This document shows positions 1 through 10,910 of a DNA stretch of 10,910 nt, in pieces; the first letter of the stretch is position 1, and each line of letters begins with the position of its first letter. The stretch lies in the IMG/VR virus record IMGVR_UViG_2859827302_000011, one strand, 5' to 3'. The notes below the pieces were generated by a model. That model was not told where the DNA came from and ran no database searches. It saw nothing but the letters and a program-made list of their open reading frames with translations. Made by a program: the position numbers and the translations under genes. This DNA comes from a virus (Duplodnaviria > Heunggongvirae > Uroviricota > Caudoviricetes).

Positions 1-504
1 TTACTGATAGTGTTTTATGTTCAGATAATGCCCGATGACCTTGTCATGCAGCTCCACCGATTTTGAGAACGACAGTGACTTCCGTCCCAGCCTTGCCAGA
101 TGTTGTCTCAGATTCAGATTATGTCGCTCAATGCGCTGAGTGTAACGCTTGCTGATAACGTGCAGCTTTCCCTTCAGGCGTGATTCATACAGCGGCCAGC
201 CATCCGTCATCCATACCACGACCTCAAAGGCCGACAGCAGGCTCAGAAGACGCTCCAGTGTGGCCAGAGTGCGTTCACCGAAGACGTGCGCCACAACCGT
301 CCTCCGTATCCTGTCATACGCGTAAAACAGCCAGCGCTGACGTGATTTAGCACCGACGTAGCCCCACTGTTCGTCCATTTCAGCGCAGACAATCACATCA
401 CTGCCCGGTTGTATGCGCGAGGTTACCGACTGCGGCCTGAGTTTTTTAAGTGACGTAAAACCGTGTTGAGGCCAACGCCCATAATGCGTGCACTGGCACG
501 ACAT
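1..504 (-). CDS. insB: IS1 InsB reading frame (transposase moiety, expressed as InsAB' fusion by -1 frameshift)
   Basis: ORF track 167-aa translation ends ...[15 protein letters not shown], characteristic of IS1 InsB; the stop codon is the reverse complement of bases 1-3. Confidence 0.85.
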
Positions 505-698
505 CCGACGCCATTCATGGCCATATCAATGATTTTCTGGTGCGTACCGGGCTGAGAGGCGGTGTAAGTGAACTGTAGTTGCCATGTTTTACGGCAATGA
601 GAGCAGAGATAGCGCTGATGTCCGGCAGTGCTTTTGCCGTTACGCACCACGCCTTCAGTAGCGGAGCAGGAAGGGCATCTGATGGAAATGGAAGCCAC
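423..698 (-). CDS. insA: IS1 InsA (transposition inhibitor / DNA-binding protein)
   Basis: 91-aa translation [43 protein letters not shown]... matches IS1 InsA, including its zinc-finger Cys pairs. Confidence 0.9.
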
Positions 699-2623: not shown

Positions 2624-2948
2624 CCACTTCAGGTCGGTCATGAGCACTAAATTAACCGGCTATGTATGGGATGGTTGCGCTGCATCAGGCATGAAGTTAT
2701 CCAGCGTGGCAATTATGGCCCGCCTGGCTGATTTCAGTAATGACGAAGGTGTGTGCTGGCCATCAATTGAAACCATTGCCCGTCAGATTGGCGCGGGGAT
2801 GAGTACCGTCAGAACGGCTATCGCACGGCTGGAAGCAGAAGGCTGGTTAACGCGTAAGGCGCGTCGCCAGGGTAACCGCAATGCGTCGAATGTTTATCAG
2901 CTTAACGTTGCGAAGCTTCAGGCAGCGGCATTTTCTCAACTGTCAGAT

Positions 2949-3008
2949 TCTGACCCGTCAAAATCTGACGCATCAAAATCTGACCCGTCAAAATTTGATG
3001 CGTCGAAA
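2949..3008 (+). repeat. Four tandem 15-bp direct repeats (tctgacccgtcaaaa / tctgacgcatcaaaa / tctgacccgtcaaaa / tttgatgcgtcgaaa) inside the replication gene; putative origin iterons
   Basis: Direct reading of the sequence; the repeats encode the pentapeptide reiteration SDPSK-SDASK-SDPSK-FDASK. Further CCGTCAG motifs occur at 5482, 5503 and 5527 beyond the IS, followed by an A-rich stretch. The analogy is to the lambda origin, which lies as iterons inside gene O. Confidence 0.5.
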
Positions 3009-3014
3009 TCTGGC

Positions 3015-3022
3015 AAAAAAGC
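3015..3022. repeat. 8-bp target-site duplication (aaaaaagc), left copy, of the IS66-family insertion
   Basis: Identical octamer at 5464-5471 immediately outside the other IS end; 8 bp is the IS66-family duplication length. Confidence 0.85.
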
Positions 3023-5463: not shown

Positions 5464-5471
5464 AAAAAAGC
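5464..5471. repeat. 8-bp target-site duplication (aaaaaagc), right copy, of the IS66-family insertion
   Basis: Identical to 3015-3022. Confidence 0.85.
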
Positions 5472-6030
5472 GGGTTTTCACCCGTCAGAATCTGGCGGGG
5501 ATCCGTCAGTAAAATCAAAACATGATCCGTCAGATAAAAAACCTTCTCGTCCGGACGCTTCGCAACCGGACACGCAGACGGCTGAACAGGATTTTTTAAC
5601 TCGCCATCCTGATGCGGTTGTATTCAGCCCTAAAAAGCGCCAGTGGGGGACGCAGGATGATTTGACCTGCGCACAGTGGCTCTGGAAAAAAATCATCGCC
5701 CTGTACGAGCAGGCTGCCGAATGTGACGGCGAGGTGGTTCGTCCCAAAGAACCGAACTGGACAGCCTGGGCAAACGAAATTCGCCTGATGTGTGTACAGG
5801 ATGGCCGTACTCACAAACAAATCTGCGAGATGTACAGCCGCGTCAGCCGCGATCCGTTCTGGTGCCGTAACGTGCTCAGCCCGTCGAAGTTGCGGGAAAA
5901 ATGGGATGAGCTTTCCCTGCGCTTATCGCCGTCCGTCAGCACGCACACAGAAAAACGTGAAGACCCGTACTTCAAAGCCAGTTACGACAACGTGGACTAC
6001 AGCCAGATCCCGGCAGGATTCAGGGGGTGA
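5464..6030 (+). pseudogene. Phage replication initiator (O-like), 3' fragment downstream of the IS66-family insertion
   Basis: Removing 3023-5463 plus one copy of the 8-bp duplication joins ...SGKKA in frame to GFHPSESGGDPSVKSK..., giving one uninterrupted 313-codon ORF (2640..3022 + 5472..6030). The track ORF start at 5449 is a TTG inside the IS66 end and is not a real start. Confidence 0.7.
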
Positions 6031-6032
6031 GC

Positions 6033-6521
6033 ATGAGTCTTTTGAATGACGTTCAGAAATTCATTGAAGCCCATCCGGGGTGTACTTCCGGAGACATTGC
6101 GGATGCTTTTGCAGGTTACTCACGGCAGCGCGTTCTGCAGTCTGCAAGCAAGTTACGTCAGAGTGGGCGTGTGGCTCACCGTTGTGAAGGAGATACACGC
6201 AGACATTTCCCGCGCCTGACTGAGAGAGCGCAGGAACCGGGACCACAATCAGTTCGAGAAACCAGACCTGTGCGCAATTTCTATGTCGGCACTAACGATC
6301 CCCGGGTGATTTTGTGCCTGACCCGCCAGGCTGAAGAACTGGAGTCCAGGGGCTTATACCGTCGTGCTGCAACGGTGTGGATGGCGGCATTCCGTGAAAG
6401 CCACTCCCAGCCAGAACGAAACAATTTTCTGGCGCGTCGTGAGCGGTGCTTACGGAAAAGCAGCAAGCGCGCTGTATCGGGTGATGAGTGGTATCTGTCA
6501 GGGAATTACGTGGGGGCTTAA
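6033..6521 (+). CDS. Hypothetical protein (162 aa), unassigned; sits in the slot after the replication initiator
   Basis: ATG at 6033 preceded by AGGGGG (6022-6027); its stop overlaps the next start (TAATG, 6519-6523). The N-terminal roughly 50 aa (MSLLNDVQKFIEAHPGCTSGDIADAFAGYSRQRVLQSASKLRQSGRV) look winged-helix-like. I do not recognise the family. Confidence 0.5.
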   Translation: MSLLNDVQKFIEAHPGCTSGDIADAFAGYSRQRVLQSASKLRQSGRVAHRCEGDTRRHFPRLTERAQEPGPQSVRETRPVRNFYVGTNDPRVILCLTRQAEELESRGLYRRAATVWMAAFRESHSQPERNNFLARRERCLRKSSKRAVSGDEWYLSGNYVGA

Positions 6522-7174
6522 TGAGTAATAAATATTGCCAGGCGCTGGTGGAGTTGCGAAACAAACCAGCCCATGAACTGAAGGAAGTGGGCGATCAGTG
6601 GCGCACACCGGACAACATTTTCTGGGGAATTAACACCCTGTTTGGCCCGTTTGTTCTGGATCTGTTTACTGACGGTGATAACGCCAAATGTGCCGCGTAT
6701 TACACGGCGGAAGACAACGCGCTGGCGCATGACTGGTCAGAACGTCTTGCGGAGCTTAAAGGTGCTGCCTTTGGAAATCCTCCATACAGCCGCGCCAGTC
6801 AGCATGAGGGGCAATACATCACCGGCATGCGTTACATCATGAAACATGCCAGTGCCATGCGTGATAAGGGCGGGCGCTATGTTTTCCTGATCAAAGCTGC
6901 CACCAGCGAAGTGTGGTGGCCGGAAGATGCGGATCATATTGCTTTTATTCGCGGGCGTATTGGTTTTGAACTGCCTGCCTGGTTTATCCCGAAAGACGAG
7001 AAGCAGGTGCCAACCGGTGCTTTCTTCGCTGGTGCTATTGCCGTTTTCGACAAGACCTGGAAGGGACCGGCAATCAGCTACATCGGGCGCGATGAACTTG
7101 AGGCATGTGGTGAGGCCTTTCTGGCGCAAGTTCGCCAGCAGGCAGAAAAACTTGTCAGGGAGATGGCGGCATGA
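6521..7174 (+). CDS. Phage DNA N6-adenine methyltransferase (Dam-like)
   Basis: Contains the amino-methyltransferase catalytic motif NPPY (AFGNPPYS); size and position match the methyltransferase commonly found in lambdoid nin regions; start overlaps the upstream stop and its own stop overlaps the next start (ATGA at 7171-7174). Confidence 0.7.
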   Translation: MSNKYCQALVELRNKPAHELKEVGDQWRTPDNIFWGINTLFGPFVLDLFTDGDNAKCAAYYTAEDNALAHDWSERLAELKGAAFGNPPYSRASQHEGQYITGMRYIMKHASAMRDKGGRYVFLIKAATSEVWWPEDADHIAFIRGRIGFELPAWFIPKDEKQVPTGAFFAGAIAVFDKTWKGPAISYIGRDELEACGEAFLAQVRQQAEKLVREMAA

Positions 7175-7497
7175 CGACGTTAACTCAATGCCAGCAGCAG
7201 GTGCTGGATATGCTGATTTCTTACCAGAAAGAACGTGGCTTCCCGCCAACCAATCAGGAGGTGGCAACCATGCTGGGATACCGTTCAGTGAATGCAGCGG
7301 TGGAGCATCTTAGAGCACTGGAGAAAAAAGGCGTCATCACGATAAAGCGTGGTGTGGCCCGTGGTATCACTCTTCATACCGCGGTGAAGGACGACGACAG
7401 CGAGGCGGTCGGGATTATCCGCTCACTGCTTGCCGGTGAGGAAAACGCCAGGCTGCGTGCAGCCCACTGGTTACATGAGAGGGGCCTGAAAGTATGA
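7171..7497 (+). CDS. LexA N-terminal DNA-binding-domain homolog lacking the S24 peptidase/dimerisation domain (108 aa)
   Basis: LTQCQQQVLDMLISYQKERGFPPTNQEVATMLGYRSVNAAVEHLRALEKKGVITIKRGVARGITL aligns by eye with the E. coli LexA N-terminus ([65 protein letters not shown], from memory). The protein ends about 40 residues later, with no Ala-Gly cleavage site or Ser/Lys dyad region. Confidence 0.8.
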   Translation: MTTLTQCQQQVLDMLISYQKERGFPPTNQEVATMLGYRSVNAAVEHLRALEKKGVITIKRGVARGITLHTAVKDDDSEAVGIIRSLLAGEENARLRAAHWLHERGLKV

Positions 7498-7883
7498 AGC
7501 TAATACTGCCTTTTCCGCCCAGCGTGAACACGTACTGGCGACACCCCAACAAAGGGGCGTTTGCTGGTAAGAGCCTGATAAGCGCAGCGGGGCGCAAATT
7601 CCAGAGCGCGGCGTGTGCAGCAATAGTTGAGCAGTTACGTCGTCTGCCAAAACCAACGTCGGCACCTGCTTCAGTGGAGATCGTGTTGTTTCCTCCGGAT
7701 AACCGGATCCGCGATCTGAACAACTATAACAAGGCGCTGTTTGACGCCCTGACCCACGCGGGTGTGTGGGAAGACGACAGTCAGGTGAAAAGAATGCTGG
7801 TGGAGTGGGGACCGGTTATCCCGGAAGGGAAGGTCGAGATCACTATCAGTAAGTACGAGAAACCGGCGGGTGCAGCAGCCTGA
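7494..7883 (+). CDS. rusA: RusA-family Holliday junction resolvase
   Basis: LILPFPPSVNTYWRH and RDLNNYNKALFDALTHAGVWEDDSQV match the RusA motifs (ITLPWPPSNNRYYRH ... [26 protein letters not shown], from memory); start overlaps the upstream stop (ATGA). Confidence 0.9.
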   Translation: MKLILPFPPSVNTYWRHPNKGAFAGKSLISAAGRKFQSAACAAIVEQLRRLPKPTSAPASVEIVLFPPDNRIRDLNNYNKALFDALTHAGVWEDDSQVKRMLVEWGPVIPEGKVEITISKYEKPAGAAA

Positions 7884-7902: not shown

Positions 7903-8700
7903 ATGAATAATCTGATGGTTATTGATGGAATTGAAGTTCGTCGTGATGCTTATGGGCGTTACAGCCTGAACGATCTGCACAGGGCTGCTGGTTCTCTGGA
8001 TAAGCATAAGCCTGCATTCTGGCTCCGCAATGAGCAAACTGAACGTTTAATAAGCGAGTTGCAGATTTGCAACTCGGTCAATATAGAACCAGTTAACGTT
8101 ATTCGTGGCGGAAATAACCAAGGGACGTATGTCTGCAAAGAACTGGTGTATGCCTATGCAATGTGGATCAGCCCGTCATTCCATCTGAAGGTGATCCGTA
8201 CTTTCGACATGGTAACCAGTGCACCGGAAAAATTATCCGGACAGGCTGCTGACAAGATGCAGGCTGGTGTGATTCTGCTGGACTTTATGCGCCGGGAATT
8301 AAACCTGTCTAACTCTTCAGTGCTTGGAGCCTGTCAGAAACTCCAGGAGGCTGTTGGCTTACCGAATCTGGCACCGCGCTATGCCATTGATGCTCCTGCT
8401 GACGCGCCTGATGGCTCAAGCCGCCCCACGCTGTCACTGAGTGCACTGCTGAAGCAGTATGGTATCCGCCTTACGGCTAATCAGGCATATCACCAGATGG
8501 CGAAGCTGGGGATCGTCGAACAGCGCGAACGATACAGCCGTACAGCGATTAACAACATCAAAAAATTCTGGTCGCTGACAGCGAAAGGCTGCATGTTCGG
8601 CAAGAATATCACCAGTCCCGCAAATCCGCGTGAGACGCAGCCGCATTTCTTCGAATCCCGATTCCCTGAGCTGTTAAAGCTGCTCGATACCGTTCATTGA
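7903..8700 (+). CDS. KilA-N domain protein (Roi/antirepressor-like), 265 aa
   Basis: The N-terminal region (MVIDGIEVRRDAYGRYSLNDLHRAAG...KPAFWLRNEQTERLISEL...YVCKELVYAYAMWISPSFHLKVIRTFD) has the KilA-N fold signature; an AGGAG ribosome-binding site precedes the ATG at 7903; this is the usual position for a roi-like gene in a lambdoid nin region. Confidence 0.7.
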   Translation: MNNLMVIDGIEVRRDAYGRYSLNDLHRAAGSLDKHKPAFWLRNEQTERLISELQICNSVNIEPVNVIRGGNNQGTYVCKELVYAYAMWISPSFHLKVIRTFDMVTSAPEKLSGQAADKMQAGVILLDFMRRELNLSNSSVLGACQKLQEAVGLPNLAPRYAIDAPADAPDGSSRPTLSLSALLKQYGIRLTANQAYHQMAKLGIVEQRERYSRTAINNIKKFWSLTAKGCMFGKNITSPANPRETQPHFFESRFPELLKLLDTVH

Positions 8701-8701
8701 G

Positions 8702-9697
8702 GTGACCGTGAGAGCACTACTGCCCCCTGAAATTGCCCCGCGTATGGGGATCGTATTGTTCAGACCAGGTTCAGAGCTGATGCCCCTGTTTATGCAGGGG
8801 CGTGTCCTGCTGGAGCCTGAGCCGGAACGTTATTCATCTTTCGCCAGTGGTGCTGTTCCGGCGGCATCACAACCGCTGGCGGATGATCCTGACGTTCGGG
8901 CCGTGTTCCGCAATGAGGCAGTGATCCGTCGTGCTGGTGGCGTGGAATGTCTTGAAAGCTGGTTACTTCGTGAAAAAGGCTGCCAGTGGCCTCATTCCGA
9001 CTGGCACAGCGAGAACATGACAACAATGCGACACGCGCCGGGCGCAATCCGTCTGTGCTGGCACTGCGATAACCAGCTGCGCGATCAGTTCACGGAACGG
9101 CTGGAATCAATGGCAACGGATAACTGTGCCCGCTGGGTGTTGTCTGTTGTGCGTCGGGATCTCGGTTTTGATGATAGTCACGTTGTGACAATGCCGGAAC
9201 TGTGCTGGTGGCTGATTCGTAATGACCTGGCGGATGCCTTACCGGAAAGTGCAGCCCGTAAGGCACTGAGATTACCGAAGCCTGTTGTGCCGTCTGTCAC
9301 CCGGGAAAGTGACCTTGTGCCTTCGGTTCCTGCCACCAGCATCATCCAGGATAAGGTGAAAAAGGTGCTGGCGCTGAAAGTGGATCCGGAGTCGCCGGAG
9401 TCTTTTATGTTACGCCCAAAACGTCGCCGCTGGGTTAATGAAAAGTACACACGCTGGGTTAAGACACAGCCGTGTGCATGTTGTGGAAAGCCTGCTGATG
9501 ATCCCCTCCACCTGATAGGCCACGGTCAGGGGGGAATGGGTACAAAAGCGCATGACCTCTTTGTGTTGCCTTTGTGCAGAAAGCATCACGACGAGCTGCA
9601 TGCGGATACCGTGGCATTTGAAGAGAAGTATGGTTCCCAGCTGGAGCTGATATTTCGTTTTATCGATCGTGCGCTGGCAATAGGCGTACTGGCGTAA
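8702..9697 (+). CDS. DUF968-like prophage protein with a C-terminal HNH-like Cys/His motif
   Basis: The C-terminus carries CACCGKPADDPLHLIGHGQGG...LPLCRKHHDELHAD, an HNH-like metal-binding arrangement, and resembles the prophage protein family that includes Qin YdfU (recollection, not searched). Start ambiguous: GTG at 8702 or 8708, or ATG at 8744. Confidence 0.6.
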   Translation: MTVRALLPPEIAPRMGIVLFRPGSELMPLFMQGRVLLEPEPERYSSFASGAVPAASQPLADDPDVRAVFRNEAVIRRAGGVECLESWLLREKGCQWPHSDWHSENMTTMRHAPGAIRLCWHCDNQLRDQFTERLESMATDNCARWVLSVVRRDLGFDDSHVVTMPELCWWLIRNDLADALPESAARKALRLPKPVVPSVTRESDLVPSVPATSIIQDKVKKVLALKVDPESPESFMLRPKRRRWVNEKYTRWVKTQPCACCGKPADDPLHLIGHGQGGMGTKAHDLFVLPLCRKHHDELHADTVAFEEKYGSQLELIFRFIDRALAIGVLA

Positions 9698-9710: not shown

Positions 9711-10463
9711 ATGAACCTTGAAGCCTTACCGAAATATTACTCCCCGAAATCTCCAAAACTGAGCGATGACGCACCGGCGACAGGCTCTGGTGGTTTAACG
9801 ATTACGGATGTGATGGCTGCGCAGGGGATGGTGCAGTCGAAAGCACCGCTTGGGTTTGCCTTATTCCTGGCAAAAGTTGGTGTTCAGGATCCTCAGTTTG
9901 CGATTGAAGGTCTGCTCAATTACGCGATGGCACTGGATAACCCGACATTGAATAAATTGAGTGAAGAAACCCGGCTACAGATCATTCCTTACCTTGTGAA
10001 TTTTGCCTTTGCTGATTATTCTAGGTCTGCGGCAAGTAAGGCTCGCTGTGAGCATTGTGCTGGTACTGGATTTCATAATGTATTGCGCGAGGTGGTGAAA
10101 CACTCCAGAAGCGGGGAATCTGTTATCAAGGAAGAGTGGGTGAAGGAACTATGTCAGCATTGTCATGGTAAGGGAGAAGTCAGCACAGCGTGCAGAGGGT
10201 GTAAGGGTAAAGGTATTGTCCTGGATGAAAAAAGGACCCGGCTTCATGGCACGCCTGTTTATAAGATTTGTGGGCGTTGCAATGGAAACCGGTTTAGCCG
10301 TTTACCAACTACACTGGCACGACGTCATGTCCAGAAGCTGGTTCCAGACCTGACTGATTATCAGTGGTACAAAGGATATGCAGACGTAATTGATAAACTA
10401 GTAACAAAGTGCTGGCAGGAAGAAGCATATGCTGAAACACAATTGAGAAAGGTGACGAGATAA
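9711..10463 (+). CDS. Q: Late-gene antiterminator Q, phage 82 / QuuQ type (250 aa)
   Basis: The N-terminus (KYYSPKSPKLSDDAPATGSGGLTITDVMAAQGM) and C-terminus (LTDYQWYKGYADVIDKLVTKCWQEEAYAETQLRKVTR) match phage 82 Q as I recall it; central Cys-rich zinc-binding region; ribosome-binding site GGAGAA upstream; followed by a promoter-terminator pair in the expected late-promoter position. Confidence 0.85.
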   Translation: MNLEALPKYYSPKSPKLSDDAPATGSGGLTITDVMAAQGMVQSKAPLGFALFLAKVGVQDPQFAIEGLLNYAMALDNPTLNKLSEETRLQIIPYLVNFAFADYSRSAASKARCEHCAGTGFHNVLREVVKHSRSGESVIKEEWVKELCQHCHGKGEVSTACRGCKGKGIVLDEKRTRLHGTPVYKICGRCNGNRFSRLPTTLARRHVQKLVPDLTDYQWYKGYADVIDKLVTKCWQEEAYAETQLRKVTR

Positions 10464-10601: not shown

Positions 10602-10910
10602 GGTAATGACTCCAACTTACTGATAGTGTTTTATGTTCAGATAATGCCCGATGACCTTGTCATGCAGCTCCACCGATTTTGAGAACGACAGTGACTTCCG
10701 TCCCAGCCTTGCCAGATGTTGTCTCAGATTCAGATTATGTCGCTCAATGCGCTGAGTGTAACGCTTGCTGATAACGTGCAGCTTTCCCTTCAGGCGTGAT
10801 TCATACAGCGGCCAGCCATCCGTCATCCATACCACGACCTCAAAGGCCGACAGCAGGCTCAGAAGACGCTCCAGTGTGGCCAGAGTGCGTTCACCGAAGA
10901 CGTGCGCCAC
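10602..10910 (-). mobile_element. IS1: IS1 insertion sequence, copy B (only the first 309 bp are in the window), same orientation as copy A
   Basis: Starts with the IS1 terminal repeat GGTAATGACTCCAAC (10602-10616); 10617-10910 is identical to 1-294. Confidence 0.95.
10617..10910 (-). CDS. insB: IS1 InsB reading frame, 3' portion (cut by window edge)
   Basis: The 97-aa translation is identical to the C-terminal part of the InsB frame of copy A. Confidence 0.85.

Follow-up and report, generated by a model that had tools for sequence, protein, structure and literature searches.

The PerC domain has one mechanistically studied relative, Pch, which activates LEE1 strictly by relieving silencing by H-NS, StpA, Hha and YdgT and lowers H-NS binding both in vivo and in vitro (PMC4764244). 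The divergent PerC homologues PchD and PchE barely activate ler (PMC5931665), so the function of the PerC domain is not uniform. For workers on EHEC virulence regulation, yfdN is "the K12 unique PerC homologue", and they delete it from their reporter strains (PMC5931665). YfdN overexpression reduced glycogen in one screen (PMC2853380). In the literature, the direct data on YfdN that we found were overexpression screen phenotypes of this kind and placement in a predicted interactome only. [quoted passage not shown] Phage modules with an initiator alone are said to have been described by Weigel and Seitz (2006) as 'initiator-solo' modules.

The locus and its identity as yfdN

The stretch of DNA that we analysed, here called the window, is 10,910 nucleotides long. 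Pfam and PHROG scans show that this 10.9-kb window is a decayed lambdoid prophage with many insertion sequences. Its features are the following, with the strand given where it was assigned:

Within 1-698, minus strand: IS1 transposase ORFs
About 810-1398: LydA-type holin and truncated lysozyme gene
1419-2623: IS3-family element ORFs
2640-3022, plus strand: N-terminal part of the initiator (HTH_36 winged helix and repeat linker), cut by an IS; from Pfam, PHROG and the rejoined ORF
2949-3012, plus strand: 15-bp tandem array inside the initiator gene, 4.3 copies of TCTGACCCGTCAAAA
3023-5463, plus strand: IS66-family element (TnpA/TnpB/TnpC ORFs), within the initiator gene
5472-6030, plus strand: C-terminal part of the initiator, with a lambda-O-C-terminal-like domain and the DnaT-type tail ...DYSQIPAGFRG
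6027-6032, plus strand: alternative GTG start, which gives the 164-aa form of RefSeq YfdN and overlaps the initiator TGA at 6028-6030
6033-6521, plus strand: yfdN-type gene, 162 aa, with a winged helix (aa 1-60), a disordered linker (61-89), a PerC three-helix domain (90-148) and the conserved tail WYLSGNYVG (153-161)
6521-7174, plus strand: phage N6-adenine DNA methyltransferase Dam (PF05869), its start overlapping the yfdN stop
7171-7497: LexA-type DNA-binding-domain protein
7494-7883: RusA
7903-8700: KilA-N protein
8702-9697: DUF968/HNH protein
9711-10463: Q antiterminator
10617-10910: second IS1

No helicase loader gene is present in the window. Pfam searches over all substantial ORFs gave other families only, namely IS1, IS3-family and IS66-family transposases, holin, initiator, Dam, LexA-type domain, RusA, KilA-N, DUF968/HNH and Q, in agreement with the original prediction that the window has no P-like or DnaC-like gene. 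The initiator gene is split by the 2441-bp IS66-family element, whose inverted ends start with GTAAGCG. The insertion is simple, with an 8-bp target duplication (AAAAAAGC at 3015-3022 and 5464-5471), and joining 2640-3022 to 5472-6030 gives a single initiator ORF of 313 aa. The gene at 6033-6521 had been described as the one after the initiator; it does adjoin the initiator stop, but the initiator is not intact, and only its IS66-split C-terminal half at 5472-6030 had been seen. The element lies 10 bp past the 15-bp array of 4.3 copies, and CCGTCARA motifs resume beyond it. By comparison with the lambda ori inside O, the array likely represents the origin iterons.

We note several other features of the window. 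The holin and truncated lysozyme genes lie upstream of the replication gene with only the IS3-family element between them, at the place of the cI-cro-cII region in intact relatives, and the lysis and replication regions have evidently been joined by an IS-associated rearrangement or deletion. IS1 sequences bracket the window (1-698 and 10617-10910) with their transposase ORFs on the same strand, and the stretch between them is therefore flanked like a composite element. The gene at 7171-7497 encodes a 108-aa protein with a LexA-type DNA-binding domain only (PF01726, 2.9e-19), without the S24 protease domain, and is kept at the same position in all relatives. Its product could occupy SOS boxes without being cleavable.

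The yfdN-type ORF is intact and encodes 162 aa between the ATG at 6033 and the TAA at 6519-6521, with a Shine-Dalgarno sequence (AGGGGG) 6 nt 5′ of the ATG. The initiator stop (TGA, 6028-6030) lies 2 nt ahead of this ATG, and the TAA overlaps the ATG of Dam (6521-6523) as TAATG, so that the gene is coupled on both sides. Translational coupling to the methyltransferase, as originally predicted, is thus borne out by the overlap. Distant homologues all start with M-S-L, which favours the ATG at 6033, and the GTG at 6027 is probably not the true start. The dN/dS values between the window protein and four homologues are 0.16-0.34, indicating that the ORF is a real gene under purifying selection.

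By its sequence matches, this gene is the prophage gene yfdN, of a two-domain subfamily of the PerC family (PHROG 1324), which is already annotated and very common. The Pfam PerC model (PF06069) matches aa 98-151 at model positions 5-58 of 90, with 38.1 bits against a gathering score of 22.6. PHROG 1324, annotated as 'transcriptional activator', matches over the full length with an E-value of 9.5e-78 (aa 1-161 against profile positions 15-166 of 172). YfdN of K-12 (b2357, cryptic prophage CPS-53) is identical at 158 of 164 residues (96%), and its neighbours match as well, with yfdO (initiator remnant) and yfdM (methyltransferase remnant) around yfdN. The statement that the protein could be placed in no family was therefore wrong, and the family that it clearly matches (PerC, PHROG 1324, YfdN) is a characterised one unrelated to replication.

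Of 5426 complete E. coli genomes, 2674 carry a gene 95-99% identical to this one, and RefSeq uses the name 'yfdN: PerC family transcriptional regulator' for such genes, including those at 98-99% identity. Since about half of these genomes thus contain this K-12 y-gene, any function of YfdN would be widely relevant. Phage versions include orf40 of SfV (95.7% identity), gp44 of mEp460 (96.9%) and Sb43 of ST64B (68%), and the same gene is found in SfII, SfIV and many Stx2c and Stx2a phages. We also considered pchD or pchE of O157 and rejected both, as their primer and flank sequences, compared by eye, are unlike this locus, and pchE is followed by a terminator and not by dam.

Domain architecture and proposed function of YfdN

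An AF2 model computed from a 29-sequence alignment has a mean pLDDT of 86, with both folded parts above 93. In this model, helices 3-13, 19-25 and 31-43 and a hairpin at 47-60 form an N-terminal winged-helix fold, which bears out the winged-helix-like N-terminus that had been described. The model shows residues 61-89 as a disordered linker, followed by PerC core helices at 90-105, 109-122 and 126-144 and by a tail of lower confidence. The protein is strongly basic (24 Arg, overall pI 10.1), including the winged-helix domain (pI 9.8), in which the recognition helix and the wing are basic, and residues 90-148 (pI 11.3); the Arg-rich C-terminus of the original description is real as well. Foldseek searches against the PDB and viral models gave only sub-significant matches for the winged helix and none for the PerC domain, and a sequence search found no solved structure for the PerC domain.

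Of 1.84 billion cluster representatives searched with the profile, only 158 (clusters at 50% identity) matched. These clusters fall into three groups: two-domain proteins, short PerC-only proteins with the tail, and short PerC/Pch-like proteins with a different C-terminal extension. The two-domain group contains about 30-plus proteins of 133-165 aa with 24-47% identity to the window protein, and conserves the winged-helix motif MSL..(V/I)..FI..NPG.T..(D/E)IA, the PerC core motif A..LE..GL.RRAA..W...ER....RR..CL and the terminal motif (W/C).LAG(R/N)(F/Y).G. The core motif LE..GL.RRAA..W...(R)R..CL is kept across 29 diverse homologues. All of them have L103, R111, A112 and R136, and nearly all have A100 and C139; the short PerC-only proteins also contain LE..GL(Y/W/F)RRAA..W. 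The tail persists where a different methyltransferase gene overlaps it, indicating that it is conserved at the protein level. Four PerC-domain proteins of 77-90 aa (P0191, P0201, P0213 and P0220) have no winged helix and end in (W/C)YLAG.(F/Y).G, unlike the KRPP...MGI type. Since such short PerC-only proteins keep it, the YfdN-type tail travels with the PerC core and not with the winged helix.

We propose that the yfdN product is probably a DNA-targeted regulator or anti-silencer, accessory to the early operon and not a helicase loader, and that the modules in which it occurs have only an initiator. This proposal is made because Pch anti-silences and YfdN adds a basic winged helix to the PerC domain. 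The two-domain architecture thus suggests a route by which the enigmatic PerC domain could reach DNA. YfdN would be an accessory early-operon regulator of SfV/mEp460/ST64B-like lambdoid phages, and translational coupling would let it be made along with the initiator and the methyltransferase. Its winged helix would target the protein to DNA, and the PerC domain would modulate transcription, most plausibly by relief of H-NS-type silencing as for Pch. The helicase would be supplied by host DnaB-DnaC, possibly via the DnaT-like C-terminal tail of the initiator. The analysis shows the identity of YfdN, its family, its fold, its synteny and that natural variants can dispense with it; DNA binding and anti-silencing by YfdN, and its targets, are what we infer, and any activation of ler or other promoters by YfdN through relief from H-NS is putative. 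In the window, the initiator is disrupted by an IS and the upstream region is IS-replaced, so a role here would be in host or prophage gene regulation. The original prediction had named an unrelated regulator as its second option, and the PerC family match and the 'transcriptional activator' label of PHROG 1324 favour that option.

The same domains bear on a different reading, in which YfdN is a protein-binding modulator whose PerC domain and/or winged helix sequesters a host protein, without sequence-specific DNA binding. The effect of Pch is wholly H-NS-dependent (PMC4764244), and the ANR family model (NCBIfam NF033650) gives a sub-threshold match over the PerC core (aa 96-142, E 3.8e-5; it scores 23.4 bits, and its cut-off is 32), as this reading would have it. 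However, both folded domains are strongly basic, as nucleic-acid binding would predict, and the majority of fold matches are DNA-binding winged helices. The ANR match misses its cut-off, and assignment to the ANR family is not supported. We regard a protein-binding modulator as unlikely, and the same holds for the targets suggested for it, which are H-NS, an AraC-type activator (as for ANR) and an RNA polymerase subunit (as for the N-terminal domain of MotA).

Gene neighbourhoods of YfdN

The neighbourhood survey covered contigs encoding family members, and the contig profile scan with close alignment gave 6 loci. Most family members lie directly 3′ of, and overlap, an HTH_36-type initiator, and a loader-less initiator stands beside the family member in 8 of 11 informative contexts, metagenomic or genomic, of diverged members and in the five annotated phages examined. 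There are three exceptions. In locus L039, an initiator C-terminus with a DnaT DNA-binding domain is followed by a Phage_lambda_P protein (PF06992, 2.6e-53; PHROG 109 'P-like helicase loader') and then by P0200, a full-length PHROG 1324 member (9.7e-29). The other two exceptions are PHROG 1324 members in recombination or early-left regions: P0224 follows RecT (L026), and P0186 has an AlpA-type gene close by and ExoVIII and RecT downstream of it (L028).

Initiators also occur without the gene. Phage cdtI keeps the SfV-type initiator and Dam, and a frameshifting deletion of 395 bp takes out yfdN codons 27-158 (window 6111-6505; L005 5001-5093). The same type of deletion allele is found in other E. 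coli chromosomes, in 3 of the 31 full-coverage matches sampled (H186, H190 and H197, as contiguous matches). Phage cdtI reportedly transfers cdt-I to a recipient strain, as mentioned in PMC4606577 with reference to Asakura 2007. The deposited genome of Klebsiella phage Kp4872-1 has a window-type initiator (66% identity over the C-terminal half) and, directly overlapping it, a D12 methyltransferase gene; YfdN and a loader are both absent. That of mEp460_ev081 has a window-type initiator (62% identical) followed by an unrelated small protein that is neither YfdN nor a loader. YfdN is thus naturally dispensable in cdtI, and would be so in Kp4872-1 and mEp460_ev081 as well if these two phages are viable. 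Co-occurrence with this initiator type, the check proposed with the original prediction, is frequent (8 of 11 contexts and five phages) but not obligatory, given the three exceptions on the one side (L039, L026 and L028) and cdtI, Kp4872-1 and mEp460_ev081 on the other.

A small putative winged-helix protein, 'LygF', occupies the slot after the replication genes in mEp460_ev081 (L015 3988-4389) and in POCJ13 (L031 4403-4834), where it comes after DnaC plus one more gene. Compared with the YfdN winged helix, LygF gave a weak hhalign probability of 17%, and the YfdN winged helix had no match to DUF977.

A methyltransferase gene is next to YfdN in nearly all contexts, and its family differs between them (Dam PF05869, D12 PF02086, MT-A70 PF05063, or Dam plus a C5 methylase). 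The slot after YfdN, or after the initiator where YfdN is absent, holds a methyltransferase in the window (6521-7174) and in L007, L010, L024, L027, L029 and L037. The change of methyltransferase families at a fixed slot is non-orthologous replacement. Because a methyltransferase follows while its family changes, YfdN might control or accompany methylation. In such a reading, YfdN would be a dedicated controller of the downstream orphan methyltransferase, comparable to the C proteins of restriction-modification systems, or a coupler of replication and methylation, acting via a promoter near the 3′ end of its own gene. The overlapping start and stop codons are in line with this reading, and the SfV record places -35/-10 signals of dam inside orf40. 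However, cdtI and Kp4872-1 have a methyltransferase without YfdN, and no methyltransferase was detected next to the family member in L026, L028 or L039. Genes of a single early operon can be translationally coupled without a dedicated regulator, and the adjacency may simply go back to a gene order conserved within one lineage of phages, in which the methyltransferase slot is a swap hot-spot. We therefore doubt that YfdN is a dedicated methyltransferase controller.

The coupled position between initiator and methyltransferase is kept down to about 25-30% YfdN identity, with both neighbours swapped for non-orthologous versions. For a free-standing regulator one would expect a less persistent position, and this hints at some tie with replication or methylation. 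One could hold that YfdN-type proteins are not ordinary transcription factors but replication-associated accessory factors of initiator-only modules, non-essential and yet advantageous. Such a role would account for a gene that keeps its coupled place between initiator and methyltransferase even as the genes on either side of it are replaced. We consider this very unlikely, and would say the same of its mechanistic form, in which the winged helix binds near the origin and the tail or PerC domain tunes helicase recruitment, transcriptional activation of the origin or the timing of methylation.

The original prediction had suggested a compact helicase-recruiting factor. In its explicit form, YfdN would be an adaptor that bridges the initiator and host DnaB or DnaB-DnaC, with its C-terminal tail as a docking peptide. 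Several observations led in this direction. SfV is a viable phage, yet its complete genome encodes one 'replication protein', and neither a helicase nor a loader is annotated in it. In most contexts, a YfdN-type gene comes directly after an HTH_36-type initiator, to which it is coupled. The C-domain of the window-type initiator shares 39% identity with the C-terminal third of lambda-type O, and in other phages, initiators with these C-domains have P, DnaC or a helicase gene after them. Specifically, the window-type initiator precedes a lambda-type P in Klebsiella phage ST16-OXA48phi5.1 and Yersinia phage 210.17. The SfV-type initiator (PHROG 270) precedes DnaC in POCJ13, and in Stx2_EH1846 it precedes a gene annotated as 'DNA helicase' and a second replication gene. 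The tail motif is also invariant.

Other observations speak against an adaptor. A PHROG 1324 member (P0200) lies 3′ of a genuine P-like loader in L039, and other members lie away from any initiator (P0224 after RecT, P0186 near AlpA/ExoVIII). Initiators with neither YfdN nor a loader are found in cdtI, where YfdN is destroyed, in Kp4872-1 and in mEp460_ev081, and the cdtI-type deletion allele recurs in E. coli genomes. The gene and loaders are thus not mutually exclusive, nor is YfdN required beside its cognate initiator. Between the window and SfV, YfdN is 95.7% identical and the initiators are 31% identical; YfdN therefore does not co-vary with initiator type in the way of a bridging partner. 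YfdN resembles P, DnaC, DnaT and other loaders neither in sequence nor in fold. It gave no Pfam or PHROG match at E ≤ 0.1 or 0.01 to models of P (PF06992/PHROG 109), DnaC/IstB or DnaT, and the family profile aligned to a P protein with an hhalign probability of 0.3%. An ATPase motif is also lacking: Walker A, GxxxxGK(S/T), is absent from the 162-aa sequence, there is no AAA+ Pfam match, and the predicted fold consists of a winged helix and three further helices. Its own domain belongs to a transcription-regulator family. A helicase-recruiting adaptor is therefore highly improbable, and these observations argue that YfdN is an accessory gene placed after the replication genes and not a stand-in loader.

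Helicase supply and comparison with known systems

The initiators themselves hint at how the helicase may be supplied. All loader-less initiators examined except that of L027, with or without YfdN next to them, end in D/T-x-x-IP-x-GFRG (window 5995-6030; L001, L003, L006, L010, L013, L015, L024 and L029). This tail motif is the extreme C-terminus of E. coli DnaT (...EPDSQIPPGFRG; dnaT at L032 3979-4518, minus strand). DnaT is a primosome adaptor thought to bring in DnaB-DnaC (PMC4132743; PMC13377028), and dnaT adjoins dnaC in E. coli. The initiator of POCJ13 (L031), which has a phage DnaC next to it, also carries this tail, and initiators with a lambda-type P next to them lack it. A wider homology between the initiator C-domain and the C-terminal domain of DnaT was rejected, as hhalign aligned the last 12 residues only with a probability of 22%, and the claim is thus restricted to the tail motif. 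Going by this motif, the DnaT-like tail may serve to dock the initiator on the host primosome or DnaB-DnaC, and initiator-only modules presumably recruit host DnaB-DnaC themselves, possibly via the tail. SfV-type phages do replicate with a single initiator gene, and the DnaT-like tail offers a testable idea of how host DnaB-DnaC is recruited.

The outcome of this analysis is mostly housekeeping, in that a common annotated prophage gene has been re-identified and the idea of a gene in the loader slot has been corrected. Its residual value lies in an uncharacterised two-domain YfdN subfamily and in an initiator-only module with a DnaT-like tail.

Compared with known systems, the feature that YfdN shares with lambda P and DnaC-type loaders is its position only, after the initiator in the lambdoid early-right operon. 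ANR proteins (AraC negative regulators such as Aar) are also small, basic and helical and match weakly over the PerC core, but they are single-domain proteins. We know of no description that places the Pch genes in a replication module. PerC of the EPEC EAF plasmid, PchA/B/C of EHEC prophages and the PF06069 family share with YfdN the basic three-helix core with LE.(R/K)GL(Y/W)RRAA..W, and Pch and YfdN are both prophage-borne. The short PerC-only homologues of about 95-104 aa, which we take to be of the PerC/Pch type, have no winged helix, and a KRPP...MGI extension replaces the (W/C)YLAG.(F/Y).G tail. The closest counterparts are SfV Orf40, mEp460 gp44, ST64B Sb43 and K-12 YfdN, which likewise have an initiator upstream and a methyltransferase downstream. 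The window differs from them in that its initiator is split by the IS66-family element and its upstream early region has been replaced by insertion sequences.
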